From a virus: a stretch of DNA of 14,709 bases. Positions within the stretch are counted from its first letter, which is position 1, and every line of letters starts with the position of its first letter. Location of the stretch: the UHGV virus genome UHGV-0109417. One strand, written 5' to 3'. Positions 41 to 11,653 of this stretch are shown piece after piece. Both the position numbers and the translations under genes were made by a program. The notes under the pieces were generated by a model that was given only the letters and a program-made list of their open reading frames with translations, was not told the DNA's origin and did no database searches.

Positions 41-259
41 TTGGAGTCATTACCGTTTTTTGGCCCCTTCTATGGTGGCTATAATGTAATCAAACTGGAT
101 GATGAGTATAAGTATGCTCTTGTCAGTGGTCCGAACAGAGAATACCTATGGATTCTGGCAAGGACCCCAACTATTCCAGATAAAGTAAAAGCAGACTATG
201 TGCGAACCGCTCAAAAGTTGGGATTCAATGTCAATGAATTATTATGGGTTAAACAATAA
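41..259 (+). pseudogene. Blc-like bacterial lipocalin, C-terminal fragment of about 70 codons; the N-terminal ~100 codons are absent
   Basis: Translation (SLPFFGPFYGGYNVI...YLWILARTPTI...) matches the C-terminal third of lipocalin Blc from memory. In-frame stop at 23-25 and no lipocalin-like sequence in any frame of 1-40. First in-frame start is TTG with no SD. Confidence 0.55.
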
Positions 260-414: not shown

Positions 415-792
415 TTATTTCGAACAATCAGCATCCATCTCCAATCGGAGAACCAACACCATCAGCATACCCTCCACTACGCCCTCAGCTTTCTGAAGCA
501 TCCTGCCAACCCAACAATCAGATCGCCCATGCTTACGTGCAAGCGCCATAAAAGTCATGCCGCCGACATAATAGTCCACCAATAAATCATGCAAATCGCT
601 GTTGTTCTTTTTCAGACGGGCCATGCACCCGCAAATGATCATCGCGTCATCGTCACAACATTGTGGGCGAGATTTTACTTTTGAAGGAATTAATCCCTTA
701 AAACCGGCGGCAATGGACGACCAGGTCACATCTTCATGATTATTAGCCGCCCACGCTCCCCAACGCTCAAGAACCATCTGAATATCACGCAT
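415..792 (-). CDS. Q: Late-gene antiterminator Q (short DLP12 QuuD-type)
   Basis: ORF reads [24 protein letters not shown]..., recognised as the QuuD/Q antiterminator family. ATG at 792 is preceded by GGAG; the track's start at 807 is TTG. Lies downstream of the nin region as in lambdoid phages. Confidence 0.85.
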
Positions 793-859
793 CAACTTAC
801 TCCACAAAACTCAGACCAGAACGCCAATTACAAGCAAAAATCAACAAAACAGTATTAGT

Positions 860-1014: not shown

Positions 1015-1377
1015 TCATTCATTCCCCATTTCGGTGATGGTCAGTTCCAGCCTCCCACCTTTGGTAACAGGCATCTTCACAACGCGGTAATCAACGACCT
1101 GAGCATCATCCAGCCAGAAACCTGCTTTAGTGAGTGCGTCAAAAGCGGCTTTTTGCAGATTATCCAGGTCACGGCGACGGCGATCCGGCATGTGGCACTC
1201 AATGCGGATTTTCACAGGCATAGCCAGACCGATATCCAGCATTGCGTTTTTAATGATTCGGGCGACGTTATCGCGGTATGCCTGCCCCTCTGCGCTGATG
1301 TGCGTGCGTCCGCGATTATGGCGGTAATAGCGATTATTGCTCGGAGGCCAGGGTAATGTGATGCTGTAGGTATTCAC
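1015..1377 (-). CDS. rusA: Holliday-junction resolvase RusA
   Basis: 120-aa [29 protein letters not shown]... matches RusA essentially end to end from memory. GTG start overlaps the ybcO stop (GTGA). Confidence 0.9.
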
Positions 1378-1664: not shown

Positions 1665-1827
1665 GATTCCTCCTTGCTGCCAGTCGCAACCATTTTTTAT
1701 CAACCAGGCTAGCGGTATATCCGAGCAGTGTTGGTATTTCGGATGGCTTCAGCTCAGGCTTACGCTTACGACGATTTGATACTCTGTAGATGTGTCCGTT
1801 CATGACACGAATAAGCGGTGTAGCCAT
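1657..1827 (-). CDS. ninE: NinE-like protein (56 aa)
   Basis: Hand translation [56 protein letters not shown]. Start ATG overlaps the ybcN stop (TAATG) and the stop overlaps the ybcO start. Resembles NinE in the YTA.L...WLR motif. Not in the ORF track. Confidence 0.65.
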   Translation of the reverse strand: MATPLIRVMNGHIYRVSNRRKRKPELKPSEIPTLLGYTASLVDKKWLRLAARRNHG

Positions 1828-2282
1828 TACGCCTCCTGCTTGTCGCGGAGCAGCTGGAACTCGCAGCTCTGCGGAATAGTCAGGTGGCAGCCAATATTCA
1901 TCGCCCAGGCTTCAACCTTACACAGGAAGACATACATCTCTCCGGTATCAAGATTGGAGGTATGACGTAATGACTGAATGGTGGTGATTTCACCGGTTAC
2001 GACATCAACCAGTTCTTTGGTTTCATAACCGAGATAAGTGTGTTTGAGAGCATCTTTTACCCAAGCTGGAGTGGCGAACGTTTTACCCCTGCTGATGAGG
2101 TATTCACTGATTTCGCTGTACCACATGTGGCTGAGTGCATTCTGGGAAAGACTGCGTCTCTCGCGCCACGGTTTAAGCACCATGCGAAAGCATTTGCCGT
2201 CCTCCAGATAAGGCTGGATCTGCCGACCGATAGCGGTGAAGTTACCGCGATGCAATTTGATACCATCTTGTGGGAGGTTCAC
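1827..2282 (-). CDS. ybcN: YbcN-type (NinB-position) recombination/base-flipping protein
   Basis: 151-aa [24 protein letters not shown]... recognised as DLP12 YbcN-like. GTG start is preceded by GGAGG with a 6-nt spacer. Confidence 0.75.
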
Positions 2283-2488
2283 GCTTCACCTCCGCAGAGA
2301 TCAAACGCTGGATGCAAAATATCGCAGGTGCATTTCTGCATCTGTGAATGGAGAAGAGAGGTTGGATTGTATGTGCGCATAAACGTCCCCGTTTAGCGCA
2401 GAAGTCACCGAAGTTGTTCAGGCTCCGATTACTTAATTATGGCAAGTTGATTATCGCAAATCAAAGGTTTTAATTGTGCTTTATTCTT

Positions 2489-2689
2489 TCAAGCGTTTCC
2501 TTCATACCAAAGCCTATAAAGTTTTTCTTCTTCGTTTGGGTTAATAGGCTCACCATGTTTTAATTTTTCAGTGTACAAAATTGTTGAACAAATCGCGGAA
2601 GTTAATCCAGTGATCGCCATCTGCCGCAGATCGGATTTTTGTGTCCCCCTCAACAGACGATCTCCCATCCATGTAATAATTGTATCCAT
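2489..2689 (-). CDS. Hypothetical small protein (66 aa), first gene of the moron
   Basis: ORF with ATG at 2689 preceded by AAGAAGGG. AT-rich compared with the flanking phage genes. No homology recognised. Confidence 0.4.
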   Translation of the reverse strand: MDTIITWMGDRLLRGTQKSDLRQMAITGLTSAICSTILYTEKLKHGEPINPNEEEKLYRLWYEGNA

Positions 2690-3275
2690 GCTTCAGCCCT
2701 TCTTAGTAAATAGTGTGTAGGGCGACTGAAGGACCGAGTTTATGCTTTTTCGCATTGCTTTCAGTTAGTAGACCGGTATAGCACCGGAAACAATCCTACG
2801 GCAAATTGGTTGTCTGACCTCTCGGTTTTTCGTGCATTAACCGATACCCACTACAGTCTCGGCGAAAGCTGCACACCCCCAAGGTGTACTGGTAGCACTC
2901 GGCACAGCCTAGCGCGCCACTTTCTTCTCACTATCCAGTCTAATTTTATCCCCTAGTCAGACACTCAGATGTAGTGCTCAGCAGCGGCATGCGGGGGAAT
3001 ACAAAAACTCGGACAAAATTGGGCCCTCCTTTTTGAATCACTCGCGGGGATGTAGTTATTAATACATGGGAAAAGATCTGTTTTCAAATCCAACATTATA
3101 TGGTTTCAATACCACGGGGTGGCTATGTGTTTCTCATTATTATTTACAATCTACTGTAATCGCTCCGAACGCAAATGCGTCAATACTCGAATCAACTGAT
3201 CATCCTGCCACGACTGAAATCTCAAATAGGCCGTTTCTCAAGTAAGAGATTTTGAATGCATTATTGGCTACTGAA
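2690..3275. other. About 590-bp non-coding stretch inside the moron; candidate ncRNA or regulatory region
   Basis: No ORF of 60 aa or more on either strand, and hand scanning of the minus strand found only peptides of 14 aa or fewer. Bounded by the terminator at 3276-3300. Contains a plus-strand sigma70-like promoter (TTGAAT-18-TATTAA near 3036-3065). Confidence 0.3.
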
Positions 3276-3300
3276 ATAAAAAACCCAGCGCAAACTGGGT
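3276..3300 (-). terminator. Intrinsic terminator after the secreted-protein gene
   Basis: Stem ACCCAG/CTGGGT (3283-3288/3295-3300) with loop CGCAAA, followed on the minus strand by TTTTTATTT. A T-run on the plus side lies 10 nt away, so it is possibly bidirectional. Confidence 0.65.
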
Positions 3301-3318
3301 TCATATGAAATTTTTTTG

Positions 3319-3813
3319 TCATTTCCAATTGCAAGACTGTGAAATTTTTTCCACAACCTTATCAATCTCAGACAAGTCAAACTCAACTACTTGCATAGTT
3401 GATCCATAAGGTTCAAACCCAAAAATAGCTTTTTTATGCTTAGCCAAGGTCTTTATAAATTGTATTGGTTGTGGAGCAAATGCAGAATCACCGCCTTCCC
3501 CACCTCCCCAAACACTCTTGACCGGCTTTCCGCCATCTAACCGCACTGTAATTCTTGGGTTGTCCGAACCCATATAATCATTGAATGATAAATAGGCATC
3601 TGTTTTGTTATCACTACAACGCAACACCAGTGAAGTTGCACGATCAGTACCTGCTTTGTTATATGAATCTGGTGATAAATTAAGAGCCACAAAGTCAGTC
3701 TGGTCAGTCATTTTATTTATCTCAGACTTTGTTATCCACGGCCCTAACTTCTCTACACCAGCATTTGCTGTAAACGAGGCACTTATAACAAAGGCTAAAA
3801 TAAATTTTCTCAT
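3319..3813 (-). CDS. Secreted/periplasmic protein of unknown function (164 aa, Sec signal peptide, two Cys)
   Basis: N-terminus MRKFILAFVISASFTANA-GVEK is a typical signal peptide with an AXA cleavage site. AAGGAG RBS 8 nt upstream of the ATG. AT-rich. Own terminator. Confidence 0.75.
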   Translation of the reverse strand: MRKFILAFVISASFTANAGVEKLGPWITKSEINKMTDQTDFVALNLSPDSYNKAGTDRATSLVLRCSDNKTDAYLSFNDYMGSDNPRITVRLDGGKPVKSVWGGGEGGDSAFAPQPIQFIKTLAKHKKAIFGFEPYGSTMQVVEFDLSEIDKVVEKISQSCNWK

Positions 3814-3959
3814 AACCCTATCTCCTTGGATTCAAAGAACTAAATATTATCAAGTCTCTTGCCACTAGAAAACCCACTTTATTTCCAAACTCTGATGGCA
3901 TTCCTGAAAATCCGCTTCATACTCACTTGCCCCGCCCTATCATCCTGAGTAGCTAACCG

Positions 3960-4133
3960 TTAAACAAACGTTCGCCAGACCTTACCATCAATGACCAGGA
4001 TTCCTGCCCGCGTCATTTTTGCCGCAGCCTTATTTATGCTGGTTAATGTCACACCTGTTGTCGCAGCAACGTCCGGCGCACAGAAGCTCTTGTGCGTCTC
4101 CAGATAATGAATAATTGCCTCTTTGCCCGTCAT
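3960..4133 (-). pseudogene. ren: Truncated ren (57 codons; lambda Ren is about 96 aa)
   Basis: Hand translation MTGKEAIIHYLETHKSFCAPDVAATTGVTLTSINKAAAKMTRAGILVIDGKVWRTFV* matches the N-terminal half of lambda Ren, then diverges and stops. ATGA overlap with the P stop. Confidence 0.65.
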
Positions 4134-4831
4134 ACAGTTGCTCCTTTCAGTCCGAACTTCGCTTTGATTTCTGCGATCTTCGCCAGAGCCTGAGCCCGGT
4201 TAAGTGGTCTACCGCCCATGACAGGAAGTTGTTTTACTGGTTCAGGTATAGCCTCACCACGGTTAATTCGTGCGGTCATACAGGACAGTTCATCGGCAGC
4301 CTTGCGCCGTAATTCCGCGTCAGTCAACGCATTGGCCCGCATGTTCTGATACAGGTTGGTAACCAGCCAGTAGTGCGCGTTTGATTTCCACGGATAAGAC
4401 TCTGCATCCGGATACAGCCCGCGCTTCCGGCAATACTCGTAAACCATATCAACCAGCTCGCTGGCGTTTGGCAGCCCGGCGGTAACGGATGCTTCTTCCC
4501 GGCACCAGGCGACAAACTGCCCGGGTGATGGCAGGAATGGTCGATTCTGCCGACGGGCTACGCGCATTCCAGCGTTAACCTGTTCCATTGTGGTGATCCC
4601 GTTTTCCCGAAAAGCCAGCACCCACTGGCGGCGGATTTCGTTCAGTTCATTCTGGTCACGGTTAGCCAGGCTCGCCGGGAAAGTTGCCAGTAACTGGCTG
4701 AACACACCGTTGATGATCTGCGCTACCTGCTGTACCTGCGGCTTTTCGTCGTACTGTTCCGGCATGTTGTTGGCGATCCGACGCATCTGCTCACGGTCAA
4801 AGTTAACCATCTGTGCGGCGATGTTTTTCAT
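4130..4831 (-). CDS. P: Replication protein P (DnaB helicase loader), near-identical to lambda P
   Basis: 233-aa ORF MKNIAAQMVNFDREQMRRIANNMPEQYDEK... matches lambda P along its whole length from memory. Confidence 0.92.
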   Translation of the reverse strand: MKNIAAQMVNFDREQMRRIANNMPEQYDEKPQVQQVAQIINGVFSQLLATFPASLANRDQNELNEIRRQWVLAFRENGITTMEQVNAGMRVARRQNRPFLPSPGQFVAWCREEASVTAGLPNASELVDMVYEYCRKRGLYPDAESYPWKSNAHYWLVTNLYQNMRANALTDAELRRKAADELSCMTARINRGEAIPEPVKQLPVMGGRPLNRAQALAKIAEIKAKFGLKGATV

Positions 4832-5757
4832 AAATCCACCCCGTAAATCCAGTCAGTGTTTGTCAGGTCGAGTTTTGGTTTGCTGGCTATCATGCCTGCC
4901 TGTTGCTTGTTACGGTTGATTTCGAGTTGGGTCCACTTGTCGCGGAGTTTGGCCGGACTTAGCACGTTACCGGACCAGAAGTTGTCCTGGCATGCCCAGC
5001 GGAAAAGCACGCACATGTCGCGGTGGTTACGTCCGTCACGTTCACGCATCAGGCGGATATCGTTAGCCCACCCTGCAAAATTCGGTTTTCTGGCTGATGG
5101 TGCGATGGTCTTCACCATGTCAAACATCCACTCTGCGGCGGTCAGGTCTTCTGCTGTCCCCCACTTGCTGCCGCTCTGAATTGCAGCATCTGGTTTCACC
5201 ACAGGAAGATCGTTTTCTGGTTGGTCAGAGGATTCGCCAGAATTCTCGGACGAAAAAGGTTTTATATTGTCTTTTGTTAGTTTGTCTTTTGTGTTTACCT
5301 GATTCGGGTAAACGCCTTTACCTGATTTGGGTAAACTTTTCTTACCTGATTCAGGTAAATTTACCTCTTTCAGGTAAACTTTATTTTCGTTACCTGATTT
5401 GGGTAATTTCACCCATTCGCTGACCGCTTTGTTAATCCCCACAGTTCTCCCGATTTGGGTAAATACCCCGCGCTTAACTAACGCGCTTTTAGCAGCAGAG
5501 CATTTGTGTGGGAGGATGCCGGTCAGGGCAGATAACTGATCATTGCTTACCCAGTCTGCCTTTTTGTTGAAACCGTATGTTTTGCGCATTACTGCCATGA
5601 AGACCAGCAGCTGATGCTGAGACAATCCAGCCAGCATGACAGCCTCCAGAAGTTCATTGGCGATGCGCGTATAGCCATCATCAAGATCTGCCACGCGCGG
5701 CTCCTTAGGTGCCACGTCAGGCACAGGGAAATTGATTACTTCGGCAGTGTTTGCCAT
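4828..5757 (-). CDS. O: Replication initiator O (lambda-type C-terminal domain, divergent N-terminal iteron-binding domain)
   Basis: 309-aa ORF. The C-terminal ~130 aa (...TAAEWMFDMVKTIAPSARKPNFAGWANDIRLMRER...DWIYGVDL) match lambda O; the N-terminal domain is related but divergent. Iterons lie inside the gene. AGGAG RBS. Confidence 0.9.
   Translation of the reverse strand: MANTAEVINFPVPDVAPKEPRVADLDDGYTRIANELLEAVMLAGLSQHQLLVFMAVMRKTYGFNKKADWVSNDQLSALTGILPHKCSAAKSALVKRGVFTQIGRTVGINKAVSEWVKLPKSGNENKVYLKEVNLPESGKKSLPKSGKGVYPNQVNTKDKLTKDNIKPFSSENSGESSDQPENDLPVVKPDAAIQSGSKWGTAEDLTAAEWMFDMVKTIAPSARKPNFAGWANDIRLMRERDGRNHRDMCVLFRWACQDNFWSGNVLSPAKLRDKWTQLEINRNKQQAGMIASKPKLDLTNTDWIYGVDL
5253..5407. 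repeat. Replication origin: five 18-bp iterons plus adjacent AT-rich region
   Basis: Iterons TTACCTGATTCGGGTAAA (5295), TTACCTGATTTGGGTAAA (5318), TTACCTGATTCAGGTAAA (5342), TTACCTCTTTCAGGTAAA (5361) and TTACCTGATTTGGGTAAT (5390), each internally palindromic. AT-rich run at 5253-5293. Same layout as lambda ori inside O. Confidence 0.8.
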
Positions 5758-5839: not shown

Positions 5840-6061
5840 TCATGCTTCAAAATCTCCCTTCACTCCATCCCTGCTAGAAATCAGGATGGCGAGCAGCAGC
5901 GACATGTTCGGCACCAGGTTCTCCCGCCACCGGCTTACGGTTGATTTGTTCACGCCAGCTACTTCGGCGATCCTGGTTGTCCCAAGATCTGCGATTTGCC
6001 GCTGCACCCAGCTCTCAATTCGTCGTGCCTCCGCTTTGTTGCGTGTCGTTAAGGTCTCCAT
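5840..6061 (-). CDS. cII: CII-like transcriptional activator
   Basis: 73-aa ORF with HTH GTTRIAEVAGVNKSTVSRW and ...SLLLAIL..., resembling lambda CII. GAGGAA RBS. Sits between cro and O. Confidence 0.75.
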   Translation of the reverse strand: METLTTRNKAEARRIESWVQRQIADLGTTRIAEVAGVNKSTVSRWRENLVPNMSLLLAILISSRDGVKGDFEA

Positions 6062-6093: not shown

Positions 6094-6110
6094 GCCGCCG
6101 GTCAGGCGGC
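6094..6110 (-). terminator. tR1-like hairpin between cro and cII
   Basis: Perfect 6-bp GC stem GCCGCC/GGCGGC with 5-nt loop overlapping the cro stop. No U-tract, so possibly a rho-dependent or attenuating site. Confidence 0.3.
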
Positions 6111-6347
6111 ATGTGAATCTTGTTTAATTCGGTCAGGGTTAGCTGCTTGACGGAGCCATTCAGCCGTAAACTGCCCATTTGATGCGTCAGCCAAAAGCTG
6201 CGAATAGTTGGTTTTCTCTGTGTACTCAGTACGAGGCAGCGCCGCGTTCTTCACCCACTTGTGAATAGCAACGTTCGATAGGCCACACAGGCGAGCAGCA
6301 GCGGTTTGACCGCCTACAGCTTCGATTGCAAATTGCATTGGGTTCAT
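6102..6347 (-). CDS. cro: Cro-like repressor (Cro/YdaS-type HTH)
   Basis: 81-aa ORF with motif AIEAVGGQTAAARLCGLSNVAIHKW. Divergent from cI across the operator region. Confidence 0.75.
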   Translation of the reverse strand: MNPMQFAIEAVGGQTAAARLCGLSNVAIHKWVKNAALPRTEYTEKTNYSQLLADASNGQFTAEWLRQAANPDRIKQDSHAA

Positions 6348-6431: not shown

Positions 6432-7208
6432 ATGGTTAAAAAAGACGATTTAAAAGAAGAATTCTCGAAAAGACTTCGCGCTGCATTGCTTGATGCTGGC
6501 GTTGGTGGTCGTGGGCAGGCTGGTAGGATCAGAGAGGCTATGAAGTCCCAAGGAATTACTGTATCTGAGCCCGGGATCTGGAAATGGCTTAACGCATCAG
6601 CGATACCAGACCAAACCAATATCCTTGCCCTTAGCCGCTGGCTTGGGGTACGGCCTGAGTGGCTTGAATACGGAAGGAATGATCCCGAACCTGAACTGCG
6701 TAGGGAGTCATCTATCCCTCCAGAATCTGAATGGGGAACTGTTGACGCCTGGGATAAAAACACACCGCTTCCTGCTGACGAGGTTGAAGTGCCGTTTCTT
6801 AAGGATATTGAATTTGCGTGTGGCGATGGACGCGTACACAGCGAAGATCACAATGGTTTTAAGCTCAGGTTCTCAAAGGCAACCCTCCGCCGCGTTGGAG
6901 CTAACACAGATGGGTCTGGCATCCTGTGTTTCCCTGCTACTGGCGACAGCATGGAACCTGTGATACCGGATGGTACGACTGTAGCCGTCGATACGAACAA
7001 CAAACGCATAGTTGATGGGAAACTGTATGCCATTGGTCAGACAGATGGCGGGAATGGTCAACTCAAGCGCATTAAACAGCTGTATCGTAAGCCAGGTGGG
7101 AAGCTGATCATCCGCAGCTACAACAATGAGGCCTACCCTGATGAAGAAGCTGACATTGATGATGTTGAGATAATCGGCCGCCTCTTCTGGTACTCGGTAT
7201 TGCTGTAG
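6432..7208 (+). CDS. cI: CI repressor (N-terminal HTH, C-terminal S24 LexA-like autopeptidase)
   Basis: 258-aa ORF with G-D-S-M serine motif and downstream Lys (KRIK) typical of S24 peptidases. Divergent from cro. Confidence 0.9.
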   Translation: MVKKDDLKEEFSKRLRAALLDAGVGGRGQAGRIREAMKSQGITVSEPGIWKWLNASAIPDQTNILALSRWLGVRPEWLEYGRNDPEPELRRESSIPPESEWGTVDAWDKNTPLPADEVEVPFLKDIEFACGDGRVHSEDHNGFKLRFSKATLRRVGANTDGSGILCFPATGDSMEPVIPDGTTVAVDTNNKRIVDGKLYAIGQTDGGNGQLKRIKQLYRKPGGKLIIRSYNNEAYPDEEADIDDVEIIGRLFWYSVLL

Positions 7209-7254
7209 CGGTGGCCTGATGAGACGTTTTGGTGAAAGCATATAAGGACTGGTG

Positions 7255-8121
7255 ATGGAAAACACTGGCTTACACGATGTTAATTTTTCACTTAGATATG
7301 ACGGTTTGGATGCTGAAAAGCATGAGATTGAACTTTCTTCGCTCGGTGAATCGCTAAAGGGATTTTCGAAGATATTAGCTACAGCTGGAACCTTCGCATT
7401 AACCCAAAAGTACTCGCGAAGCACCTCAACTCAAGAGGTTAAAATTTACGCTACCGAAGCTAGGGCCAATTGTTTTTCTCTTGATACTATCATGAATTTT
7501 ATCAGTCAGTCTCAATTGTTCTCAGGGTCTGCGGGGGCTATACTTGGCGCATTAGTGCCTTATATCTTCGCTAAAAACTCGCAGAAGAAAGAGGAAATGA
7601 AATACCTAAAAGAAGCACTTGAGAAGGCAATTGAGGCCCTCGGAAATAAAGATAAAGATACCATCTCAGGTCTAATCTCAGTGATTGACAAGATGGCTAG
7701 TGAGTTACGCCCATCAGTTAGACAGGCAGTTTCCCCCATCGGTACCACCTGTAATAAGATAAGCGTCACACCGGGGAATGGTTTCAAGCCTGCTGTAATT
7801 GATGAGCAAGATAAAGCAGTAATAGACCAGTTGGACGACGACGAAGTTCTTGGCTTAAGGGAGTATCGAATCTTCCTTACTGAATTCGACGCTCACCGAA
7901 TGACCGCTAAAGTCATTATAGAAGGTGATGATTCAGATAAGCGCATCTCAGCACAAATAAGCGATCCATCTGCTTCAAAGGCAGACAACCCGTATCTCAT
8001 TTCACTTAGTCGTTTTCTGTCAACGGGTCTAAGTCATGAGTCAGCGGTAAAAGTAACTGCCAAAGCAGCAGTTAGAAAAGGGGCTATTAGTAAACTTTTC
8101 ATAGTTGATATTGAGCTTTAA
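7255..8121 (+). CDS. Hypothetical protein (288 aa) in the rexAB-equivalent slot downstream of cI; candidate exclusion/defence gene
   Basis: ATG at 7255 with AAGGA RBS, 47 bp after the cI stop and on the same strand. Ends at a strong intrinsic terminator. AT-richer than cI. No similarity to RexA or RexB recognised and no obvious multi-pass TM segments. Confidence 0.8.
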
Positions 8122-10612: not shown

Positions 10613-10681
10613 TCCCCCACCCCATTTCACATCTGGCAGCCAATCGCCGGGTGACGCACATTCTGATTTCAGGAGTAACCC

Positions 10682-11653
10682 ATGAGTGAAGCAACGGATT
10701 TAGTCGTCATAGAGAAGTCGAACGCGATGGCAGTCTTTACCAGCAAAGAGCAGCTCGACCCGCTTCTCGAGAAAATCGAGACAGAGGCCCGCAGCCTGGT
10801 ACCCGACCTGACCACTAAGAAAGGTCGCGACGCCATCGCATCAATGGCCCACAAGGTCGCCCGCTCGAAAACGTACATCGACAACGCCGGTAAAGACCTC
10901 GTTGCAGAGCTCAAGGCATTGCCCAAGCAGATCGACGAAAGCCGCCGAATTGTGCGTGAGCGACTCGACGCGCTGAAAGATGAAGTTCGCCGCCCGCTGA
11001 CCGAGTGGGAAGCCGAACAGGAGCGCATTAAAGCCGAAGAGGAAATGAATGCGTGGCATGCCGAAGCTCTGGAGATGAACGCAGAGTTCGATCGCCAACT
11101 GGCAGCACGACGCGAAGCAGACCACGAAATGGCTCTGCTGATGAATGACAAGTTTGACCGTGACCGCGAAGAGCAGCGCCGCCAGGCGGAACAGGCACAG
11201 CGTGAACGTGACGAGCGTCTGAAGCAGGAAGCGGCAGAACAAGCCCGCCGCGATGCCGAAGCGAAGCACAAAGCGGAGATTGAAGCCGCAGCACGCCGTG
11301 AAGCTGAAGAGAAAGCGCGTGCAGAGCTGGCAGAGCGCCAGCGCATCGAAACGGAGCAGCGTGCGGAACGCGAGAAGCAGGAAGCGGAAGCGCGGGCGGA
11401 ACGGGAAAAAGCCGCGGCAGTGGAAACTGAGCGCCTCAAGGCAAAACAGGCAGAAGAAGCCCGCCTGGCTGAAGAGAAGCGCATCGCCGACGAACAGGCT
11501 AAGCGCGAAGCTGACGTGAAGCACCGCAAGACGGTCGGCACCAACATCGTTAACGCGCTCACCAGCCACACCAGCTTAACTCGCGAACAGGCTATCGAAG
11601 TGCTCACCGCTCTGAAAGATGACCTGATCCCCTGCGCGAAAATTCATTACTGA
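10682..11653 (+). CDS. Hypothetical 323-aa protein with a long E/R/A/K/Q-rich charged helical central region
   Basis: Long ORF with ATG at 10682 directly upstream of gam-like/bet/exo. Central ~160 aa are low-complexity charged heptad-like repeats; the N- and C-terminal ~80 aa are ordinary. Confidence 0.8.
   Translation: MSEATDLVVIEKSNAMAVFTSKEQLDPLLEKIETEARSLVPDLTTKKGRDAIASMAHKVARSKTYIDNAGKDLVAELKALPKQIDESRRIVRERLDALKDEVRRPLTEWEAEQERIKAEEEMNAWHAEALEMNAEFDRQLAARREADHEMALLMNDKFDRDREEQRRQAEQAQRERDERLKQEAAEQARRDAEAKHKAEIEAAARREAEEKARAELAERQRIETEQRAEREKQEAEARAEREKAAAVETERLKAKQAEEARLAEEKRIADEQAKREADVKHRKTVGTNIVNALTSHTSLTREQAIEVLTALKDDLIPCAKIHY

Follow-up and report, generated by a model that had tools for sequence, protein, structure and literature searches.

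The ren-ylcH interval and its features

We here describe positions 2,283 to 3,959 of a 14,709-nt stretch of viral DNA (UHGV virus genome UHGV-0109417; the window, in what follows, is this whole stretch), a region that holds the decayed end of a ren gene, a gene for a predicted secreted protein with a VasI/TagO domain, and a long structured non-coding RNA. The window constitutes an Escherichia coli prophage, lambdoid and of DLP12 type, whose early-right operon is encoded by the minus strand, and past ren the order is the studied region, a ylcH-like open reading frame (ORF), ybcN, ninE, ybcO, rusA, ylcG and Q. The region is 100% identical in E. coli AR_0369 and several other chromosomes. In the direction of the operon, the interval contains the following features.

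3960..4133, minus strand: ren ORF, 57 codons, the N-terminal helix-turn-helix part of Ren, ending at a TAA that replaces Tyr-58 (TAC)
3865..3959, minus strand: decayed 3' part of ren (from the PGAP pseudogene call, DNA alignment, translation and megablast)
3844..3852, minus strand: extended -10-like TGaTAATAT upstream of the secreted-protein gene, a candidate promoter only, seen by eye
3319..3813, minus strand: VasI/TagO-like gene, 164 aa, with the ribosome-binding site (RBS) AAGGAG at 3827-3822, 8 nt before the ATG
3281..3302, minus strand: intrinsic terminator of the VasI-like gene, a 9-bp stem GAACCCAGTTTGCGCTGGGTTT followed by TTTATTT
3151..3237, minus strand: 3' stub of a Bro-N/P22AR_C antirepressor gene, its last 28 codons (ETAYLRFQSWQDDQLIRVLTHLRSERLQ, then the stop)
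3058..3087, minus strand: promoter-like site of the RNA gene, with -35 TTGAAA (3087-3082), a 17/18-nt spacer and -10 TATTAA/ATTAAT (3064-3058)
2724..3051, minus strand: non-coding RNA of 328 nt, with a structure of 91 predicted pairs in 17 helices (RNAalifold, covariation)
2489..2689, minus strand: 66-aa ORF, a truncated derivative of a 118-aa ORF (phrog_12412) with a 134-nt deletion between TTGGTATGAAG repeats
2436..2464, minus strand: TG-extended promoter-like TTGATT-N17-CATAAT, at the point of return to DLP12 backbone homology
2279..2380, minus strand: ylcH-like 33-aa ORF overlapping the ybcN start, backbone and not cargo

The GC content of 2283-3959 is 0.418, as compared to 0.510 and 0.513 for the two flanks, and only 1.3% of the 1677-nt segments in the 14.7 kb reach a value as low, making it essentially the most GC-poor segment of this length. 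The secreted-protein gene has a GC of 0.390 and a GC at third codon positions (GC3) of 0.315, while the backbone genes P, O, ybcN and rusA range between 0.49 and 0.55 and between 0.53 and 0.61, respectively. A sequence-only reading of this DNA had proposed an AT-rich insert and named composition as a check; the region indeed differs from the backbone in GC as well as GC3. The proposal holds for the region overall, but not for the 331-nt core at 2721-3051, which is GC-normal at 0.505, the AT-richness being patchy rather than uniform. It is in this middle part that the structured RNA lies, an element which had gone unseen in that account.

Decay of ren

The same reading had ren cut to 57 codons by the insert. 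The ORF is 57 codons long, and the last ~10-15 codons, the only part of the gene that is missing, are gone. The truncation itself, however, stems from a nonsense change, TAC>TAA at codon 58, and ren DNA continues to ~3865-3889. With the intact Ren of strain 405 (100 aa), the 57-codon product shares 80% identity across 55 aa, and it matches phrog_142 (Ren-like) as well as the 57-aa family phrog_7054. Past the stop, Ren homology goes on in the same frame (RLATQDDRAGQVSMKRIF here against RFATREEREGKVSTNLIF), with a 1-nt deletion at about 3906/3905, downstream of the nonsense codon, as a second lesion. Congruent with this, PGAP labels the gene 'protein ren, frameshifted; internal stop' and extends it to 3865, megablast comparison with other ren alleles follows the homology to at least 3889, and an intact Ren frame of ~96-100 codons is absent from the window. 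Since the homology reaches ~95 nt beyond the stop codon, the truncation was made by point mutation and not by the insert. Judged from its sequence, ren is thus a mutational pseudogene, carrying a nonsense change and a frameshift.

Architecture of the cargo slot

In the DLP12 prophage of E. coli K-12, emrE directly follows the ren remnant, and comparison with K-12 confirmed that the region occupies this same slot, as had been suggested. The K-12 cargo between ren and ylcH consists of emrE-ylcJ-ybcK-ybcL-ybcM, and neither half of the region studied here is present. Strain 405 has an intact ren, emrE, ylcJ, ybcK and an antirepressor fragment, and then the right half of the window's region, the serine recombinase gene ybcK thus lying upstream of that half. 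STEC1589 shares the decayed ren followed by tagO (ren'-tagO), and then two ORFs different from those in the window. Comparison with related prophages, as advised in the sequence-only reading, hence revealed the same flanks with other cargo in K-12, strain 405 and STEC1589. The right border proposed there, at 2283, lies too far out: DLP12 backbone homology, including the ylcH-like ORF, already resumes at about 2465, and 2283-2465 is common to >2800 genomes. The site at 2436-2464 (minus strand), upstream of ylcH-ybcN, is also the only TG-extended promoter-like site in the region.

The two halves meet at a module junction at 3239-3241 (about 3240). In phage IdasGreatGrand both halves are present at 94-95% identity, being separated by an additional 1839 bp at this point that include a complete Bro-N/P22AR_C antirepressor gene. 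Precisely the final 28 codons of this gene are retained in the window, which gives the join near 3240 the look of a deletion. IdasGreatGrand also contains a second copy, 83% identical, of the ylcH-upstream segment (window 2303-2439) inside its cargo region (L006:1934-2071), and repeated linker segments of this kind could mediate deletions and swaps in the slot.

We then assessed how the parts are distributed over 5426 complete E. coli genomes. The whole arrangement is found in 59, the ren'-tagO junction in 81 (queried with 320 nt, window 3814-4133, at >=80% coverage); 183 contain the RNA module and 159 the RNA as such. It follows from these numbers that the modules occur independently. An empty slot was not encountered: a chimeric query of ren and ylcH placed the two within about 740 nt of each other in 0 of the 5426 genomes. 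Transposon-like signatures, namely direct repeats at the flanks or tandem repeats, were not found either. The lack of any ren close to ylcH together with the lack of flanking repeats points towards a permanently filled, recombining slot rather than a simple insertion site. On the grounds of sequence comparison, we therefore view the region as a mosaic of at least two independently distributed modules and not as one moron.

A single AT-rich moron with promoter, gene and terminator, inserted in ren with deletion of its 3' end and equal to all of 2283-3959, is consequently a very unlikely description. It would account for the low overall GC, the gene equipped with RBS, signal peptide and terminator, the true loss of the last ren codons and the location in the slot of emrE. 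Yet the ren homology past the stop indicates a point mutation, 2283-2465 is backbone, the halves are found separately in other genomes with an antirepressor stub in between, the central 331 nt are not AT-rich, and neither a target duplication nor an empty site could be detected. The broader notion of a cargo island is on the other hand borne out: the content is compositionally foreign, it is placed in a slot with differing cargo among prophages, and it includes a self-contained gene for a secreted protein, homologues of which are accessory and not part of a conserved core in unrelated prophages of Klebsiella and Pantoea. Taken as a whole, what the sequence-only reading observed is partly confirmed, and how it interpreted the region is partly supported.

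The left-over gene at the end of the right half shows a decay of its own. Comparison with the 118-aa ORF at L003:3551-3907 demonstrated that 11-nt direct repeats (TTGGTATGAAG) bound the 134-nt deletion that yields the 66-aa ORF. The latter begins 34 nt past the RNA core, with no terminator in the interval. The truncated form has a phage family of its own, phrog_8527, and is hence common. No informative PADLOC, Pfam or NCBIfam match was obtained for the 66-aa and 118-aa ORFs or for a 183-aa ORF found next to the RNA elsewhere, and none in Pfam for two further ORFs of 191 and 95 aa.

The VasI/TagO-like secreted protein

The RBS and signal-peptide protein noted in the sequence-only reading are well founded, with AAGGAG 8 nt before the start of a 164-aa ORF and a Sec-type signal peptide MRKFILAFVISASFTANA|G formed by codons 1-18 (3813-3760), and so is the terminator, a 9-bp stem followed by a T-run at 3302-3281. 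The promoter-like sequence that was claimed for the gene fares worse. A consensus promoter scan of the region returned 4 sites with 4.4 expected, a chance-level outcome, and none of them lies upstream of the secreted-protein gene; by eye, we could only recognize the TGaTAATAT at 3852-3844. In Klebsiella homologues, TTGTCG-N17-TAGGAT is present at the equivalent upstream position.

The predicted mature protein is a beta-sandwich of ~146 aa with two invariant cysteines. The AlphaFold model is confident (predicted local distance difference test score, pLDDT, 86.9) and shows the beta-sandwich accompanied by two helices, with an AlphaFold 2 pLDDT <50 at residues 1-17. In RefSeq the protein is named "type VI secretion system-associated protein TagO", and its phage family, phrog_1848, is already annotated as a prophage accessory gene. 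The match to Pfam VasI (PF11319) is a marginal pass, 26.7 bits at a gathering threshold of 26.5, covering profile positions 78-184 only, the C-terminal part, and the NCBIfam equivalog TIGR03360 failed with 14.4 bits at a cut-off of 124.2. In a family profile search, thousands of longer proteins turned out to have the domain C-terminally, indicating that the prophage protein is a minimal form that comprises a signal peptide and the domain, and several of the ~200-aa proteins reached by the profile align end to end with the TIGR03360 VasI model. The profile search against the sequences of the Protein Data Bank (PDB) matched no chain.

Close homologues of ~165 aa are found in Salmonella, Enterobacter, Citrobacter, Pantoea, Serratia and Klebsiella. 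In siphophages of Klebsiella and Pantoea, terminators enclose the gene on both sides and its place is between those for the tail chaperone and the tape measure; all loci examined (the window, L002, L007 and L081-L086) are prophage accessory slots, either by replication genes or by the tail chaperone and tape-measure genes. Type VI secretion (T6SS) genes were not detected near the homologues at any of these loci. Consequently, a role together with a T6SS, be it that of an accessory part or that of an orphan immunity protein which counters effectors in the periplasm, appears quite unlikely to us, despite the Pfam match and the RefSeq name, the profile's reach to the proteins that correspond to TIGR03360 over their entire length, and the predicted periplasmic location, where cell-wall-targeting effectors act. 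Besides the prophage context and the wide gap to the equivalog cut-off, the closest solved fold is IalB, not an immunity protein, and the function of VasI/TagO is itself given as unknown in a 2026 review (PMC13584744). We rather regard the protein as an ordinary exported candidate for lysogenic conversion. Our best guess is that it may protect the lysogen against an envelope-level attack, by a superinfecting phage or by contact-dependent killing.

A conserved structured RNA

The RNA is contained in a stretch without ORFs, flanked by the antirepressor stub on one side and the 66-aa ORF on the other, and a covariance-model match to it spans 2685-3069. In the alignment, invariant blocks alternate with variable segments that carry compensatory changes. 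Among 14 sequences, 97.5% of the pair cells are standard pairs, as compared to 33-48% in controls where the partners were slid by 1-3 columns, and changes on both sides were observed in 17 pairs, as opposed to 2-6 in the slid controls. The observed covariation score was reached by none of 500 shuffles, and a model-based alignment of 26 distinct sequences yielded the same outcome for pairing and covariation. The support from covariation is located in helices 5, 7, 8, 11, 12 and 16, and helices 1, 2, 4, 13 and 17 are invariant. That the RNA lies on the minus strand follows from the invariant G-U pairs. Folding of single sequences was uninformative (z-scores -0.6 and +1.1), a tRNA/tmRNA scan returned none, and a search within the window for antisense targets of the conserved single-stranded blocks recovered only the RNA's own opposite strand.

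That the conserved 330 nt are not an RNA at all, but an overlooked protein gene or else a site acting as DNA, for example an origin or the target of a recombinase, strikes us as extremely improbable. Small ORFs are annotated across the RNA in phage IdasGreatGrand, antisense stretches of 70 codons free of stops occur in many variants, and a serine recombinase gene lies upstream in strain 405, all of which could be taken to favor such an identity. However, a coding signal is absent in all six frames, with a synonymous fraction of 0.16-0.25 showing no excess and stops in every frame in some members, and the variable columns have no codon 3-periodicity (45/43/39). Furthermore, the variation is concentrated in compensatory pairs, the invariant G-U pairs are strand-specific, and the recombinase is missing from most contexts.

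The 5' domain of the RNA also contains a perfect Shine-Dalgarno (SD) sequence, AAGGAGG at 3031-3025, with a spacing of 8 nt to the UUG start of a small ORF (3016-2978, minus strand). This ORF has 12 codons in the window and 19 codons (MSEFLYSPACRC-x-A-x-x-LSV) in most homologues and shows synonymous as well as radical changes; the SD may serve translation or the RNA fold.

Signals, neighbors and distribution of the RNA

In 24 distinct upstream sequences, the -35 TTGAAA and the -10 (A/T)T(T/A)AAT are fixed in position while the 17-nt spacer varies, and from these positionally kept elements the RNA is predicted to start at about 3051. One clade of homologues (L042, L057, L101, L120, L124 and others) displays an inverted repeat, AACCATA-N5-TATGGTT, ~20-45 nt upstream of the RNA start. 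Such an operator-like repeat overlapping the -35 would suggest that transcription of the RNA is regulated.

At the other end, most homologues have a strong intrinsic terminator ~15 nt past the last helix. In the window type and two or three diverged relatives there is no terminator, and the RNA continues to the 118-aa ORF family at a fixed distance. The downstream genes are otherwise of at least 5 unrelated types, and L014 has a DUF1367 gene of the backbone in next position, with no cargo partner. In Klebsiella phage Kp4856-1, the 183-aa ORF (phrog_27260; L005:3385-3936) past the RNA terminator includes the residues RLRHNLLH, which recall HEPN nucleases by their R-x4-6-H motif, and it gave no Pfam or PADLOC match.

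These neighbors bear on two further explanations. First, the 328-nt RNA could be a cis-acting leader of the adjacent downstream cargo gene, as a riboswitch, attenuator or antitermination element. A promoter, the RNA, a terminator and an ORF 20-80 nt further on are indeed the arrangement in most homologues, the form that lacks a terminator has the RBS of the 118-aa ORF at a fixed distance, and the small ORF with its perfect SD, UUG start and 19 codons in the 5' domain could be a leader peptide. On the other hand, at least five unrelated downstream families are found, and the RNA is followed by ordinary or backbone genes in L014 and L125. The terminators are simple, strong and varied in sequence, with no obvious alternative pairing into the RNA, and the small ORF varies in length, being only 12 codons in the window. 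In addition, the downstream ORF is destroyed in the window, yet the RNA is 99-100% conserved in about 58 genomes. Weighing these aspects, we find a leader unlikely, and favor a stand-alone RNA gene.

Second, the RNA and the downstream ORF could form a toxin-antitoxin (TA) or abortive-infection pair of type III layout, with promoter, RNA, leaky terminator and toxin. The gene order resembles that generally known for ToxIN, the downstream ORFs are small and variable, including a 191-aa membrane protein and the 183-aa protein with its R-x4-6-H-like motif seen by eye, and defense genes often reside in prophage accessory slots. The RNA is nevertheless devoid of tandem repeats (Tandem Repeats Finder, minimum score 30), PADLOC gave no match for the 66-, 118- and 183-aa ORFs and Pfam none above cut-off for the 118-, 183-, 191- and 95-aa ORFs, and the downstream partners are not mutually homologous. 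As moreover the RNA is without a cargo partner in L014 and the ORF is truncated in the window, such a pair is highly improbable, and the stand-alone gene remains the preferred identity of the RNA.

The RNA is present as one copy each in the 159 E. coli genomes (about 3%), where it is 99-100% identical and never annotated. Copies of 77-84% identity exist in about 40 contigs of viral or metagenome origin and in Klebsiella phage Kp4856-1, and the RNA was detected in 4 of 50,697 phage records. IdasGreatGrand, Turner and Klebsiella Kp4856-1, all isolated and viable temperate phages, carry it. The species-representative genomes of GTDB contained no instance of the two-block pattern, and an 18-mer gave only chance matches in unrelated phyla. 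Rfam 15 returned no family match for six variants, searched at gathering thresholds on the window and at a permissive setting (E<=1-5, relaxed filters) on 2400-3400 and five diverged homologues. A C0465 match obtained from Rfam is chance-level and falls on the terminator, not on the RNA element. No description of the RNA appeared in the literature searched, where a conserved 16-mer retrieved only an unrelated primer, and the IMG/VR catalogue of candidate RNAs may list it anonymously (PMC10690425). Aggregated, the large structured RNA is well supported and apparently undescribed.

A proposed account of the interval

The explanation that we consider likely is that of a cargo slot between ren and ylcH which is reshuffled by recombination and always occupied, carrying a gene for a secreted protein and, separate from it, a stand-alone gene for a structured RNA. 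The interval from P/ren to ylcH-ybcN is here a mosaic of five parts. The first is the ren gene, inactivated by nonsense change and frameshift, and the second a compact unit that combines a strong RBS, a Sec signal, the VasI/TagO-domain beta-sandwich and a strong terminator. Third, the 28-codon antirepressor stub marks the 1.84-kb difference to IdasGreatGrand. Fourth comes the putative gene for the 328-nt RNA, oriented as the early-right operon and with a sigma-70-like -35/-10, and fifth, the RNA, having no terminator, would run into the 66-aa remnant of the 118-aa ORF.

In the lysogen, a weak promoter of its own would drive the protein gene, insulated by the terminator; after export by Sec, the protein would fold in the periplasm, where Cys66 and Cys161 may form a disulfide. 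There, it may act as a lysogenic-conversion factor at the cell envelope, probably outside any T6SS machine. In the lytic cycle, polymerase that starts at pR and is modified by N would read through the terminator. The RNA, with its own promoter, is envisaged as stand-alone and trans-acting. Expression independent of early phage transcription, as the sequence-only reading held likely, is in this manner an inference that the proposed account shares. The many invariant unpaired nucleotides and the multi-junction fold are less suggestive of a small RNA that acts by base pairing than of a scaffold to which a protein or ligand binds, or of a catalytic RNA. Tentatively, and at somewhat less than even confidence, we propose that the RNA founds an undescribed class of large structured RNA, an RNA-only accessory gene of Enterobacteriaceae lambdoid prophages that may act in trans as a scaffold, ribozyme or conflict RNA.

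Several aspects weigh against this account. The direction of the 1.84-kb difference is deduced only from the truncated antirepressor, with a deletion here or an insertion in IdasGreatGrand both conceivable. As helices 1, 2 and 4 in the 5' domain of the RNA show no variation, the pairing there is predicted only. The candidate -10 of the RNA has no consensus A at -11 and was not called by the scan, and the candidate promoter of the secreted-protein gene is weak. The form without a terminator fits a leader RNA as well as a stand-alone gene. As to the role of the protein, fold matches in BFVD are all to uncharacterised proteins, and the review's verdict on VasI/TagO applies here as well.

The cargo island is real but ordinary, and in part already annotated in RefSeq. 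The protein is likewise routine: what RefSeq calls a T6SS-associated TagO is a widespread prophage accessory gene without T6SS context, a reason for caution in annotation. The RNA matters more, being unannotated even though E. coli and lambdoid prophages are among the most studied genetic systems. RNAs of such size and complexity are rare in bacteria, and earlier ones proved to be ribozymes, riboswitches or unusual assemblies. As host and phage are genetically tractable, the function of the RNA is directly testable.

Further features of the window

The backbone genes of the prophage are positioned as follows.

6432-7208, plus strand: cI
6102-6347, minus strand: cro
5840-6061, minus strand: cII
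4828-5757, minus strand: O
4130-4831, minus strand: P
1827-2282, minus strand: ybcN
1015-1377, minus strand: rusA
415-807, minus strand: Q

Directly downstream of cI, at the position of rexAB in lambda, is a 289-aa ORF (7252-8121, plus strand; GC ~0.43) with the Pfam domains DUF7946 and DUF7947 and a weak match to the PADLOC candidate defense family PDC-S42 (E 1e-5), possibly a prophage exclusion or defense gene. At the other end, a lipocalin-family gene (41-259, plus strand) is convergent with Q and followed by a YbgA-family gene (AR_0369, L001:9701-11377), a pair that makes up another cargo slot, where DLP12 of K-12 has nmpC. Finally, a 323-aa ORF at ~10680-11650 (plus strand) is very rich in Glu, Arg and Ala, with local GC up to 0.63 and an AT skew of 0.6, and opposite to it run long spurious ORFs; this is a compositional outlier in the direction contrary to that of the AT-rich region.

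Comparison with known systems

The closest comparison is the ren-ybcN region of DLP12 in K-12, with which the window shares the P/ren and ylcH-ybcN-ninE-ybcO-rusA-ylcG-Q flanks, the orientation and a ren pseudogene. The cargo is in contrast wholly different, the VasI-like gene and the RNA both being absent from K-12.

Morons of lambdoid phages include bor and lom of lambda and those of HK97 and HK022, the latter reportedly the work of Juhala and Hendrix. Similar to the classical examples, the gene in the window differs in composition from its surroundings, comes with a terminator of its own as well as a candidate promoter, and is not needed by the phage. Unlike them, its slot is without an empty-site relative in the genomes searched (5426), and it is filled by several unrelated modules and not by one insertion. 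With VasI/TagO (PF11319, TIGR03360) the protein has the C-terminal domain and the predicted periplasmic location in common, but it is shorter, far below the equivalog cut-off and always prophage-borne at the loci examined. The closest solved fold is that of IalB of Bartonella (invasion-associated locus B, PDB 3dtd), at an identity of only 9%, and we know of no established mechanism for IalB itself.

As for the RNA, a riboswitch or other cis-acting leader differs in that the RNA is not tied to one downstream gene family or pathway. Type III TA systems (ToxIN, CptIN, TenpIN) likewise consist of a promoter, a non-coding RNA, a terminator and a small ORF; the window RNA is however without tandem repeats, no ToxN/AbiQ-like protein was found among the downstream ORFs tested, and the downstream genes are mutually unrelated. 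DicF, IpeX of DLP12 and IsrK of Gifsy-1 are base-pairing prophage RNAs of enterobacteria, 50-100 nt in length. Congruent with these, the RNA reported here is an RNA-only accessory gene with its own putative promoter and, in most homologues, a terminator, residing in lambdoid prophages, but it is three to six times longer, has 17 helices and is matched by no Rfam model. GOLLD and ROOL are long multi-helix RNAs of temperate phages with conserved unpaired nucleotides and no known function. Compared to these, the RNA is smaller at 328 nt, lacks an Rfam match and is restricted to Enterobacteriaceae lambdoid prophages, yet like them it is long, multi-helical and phage-borne, with strongly conserved unpaired nucleotides.

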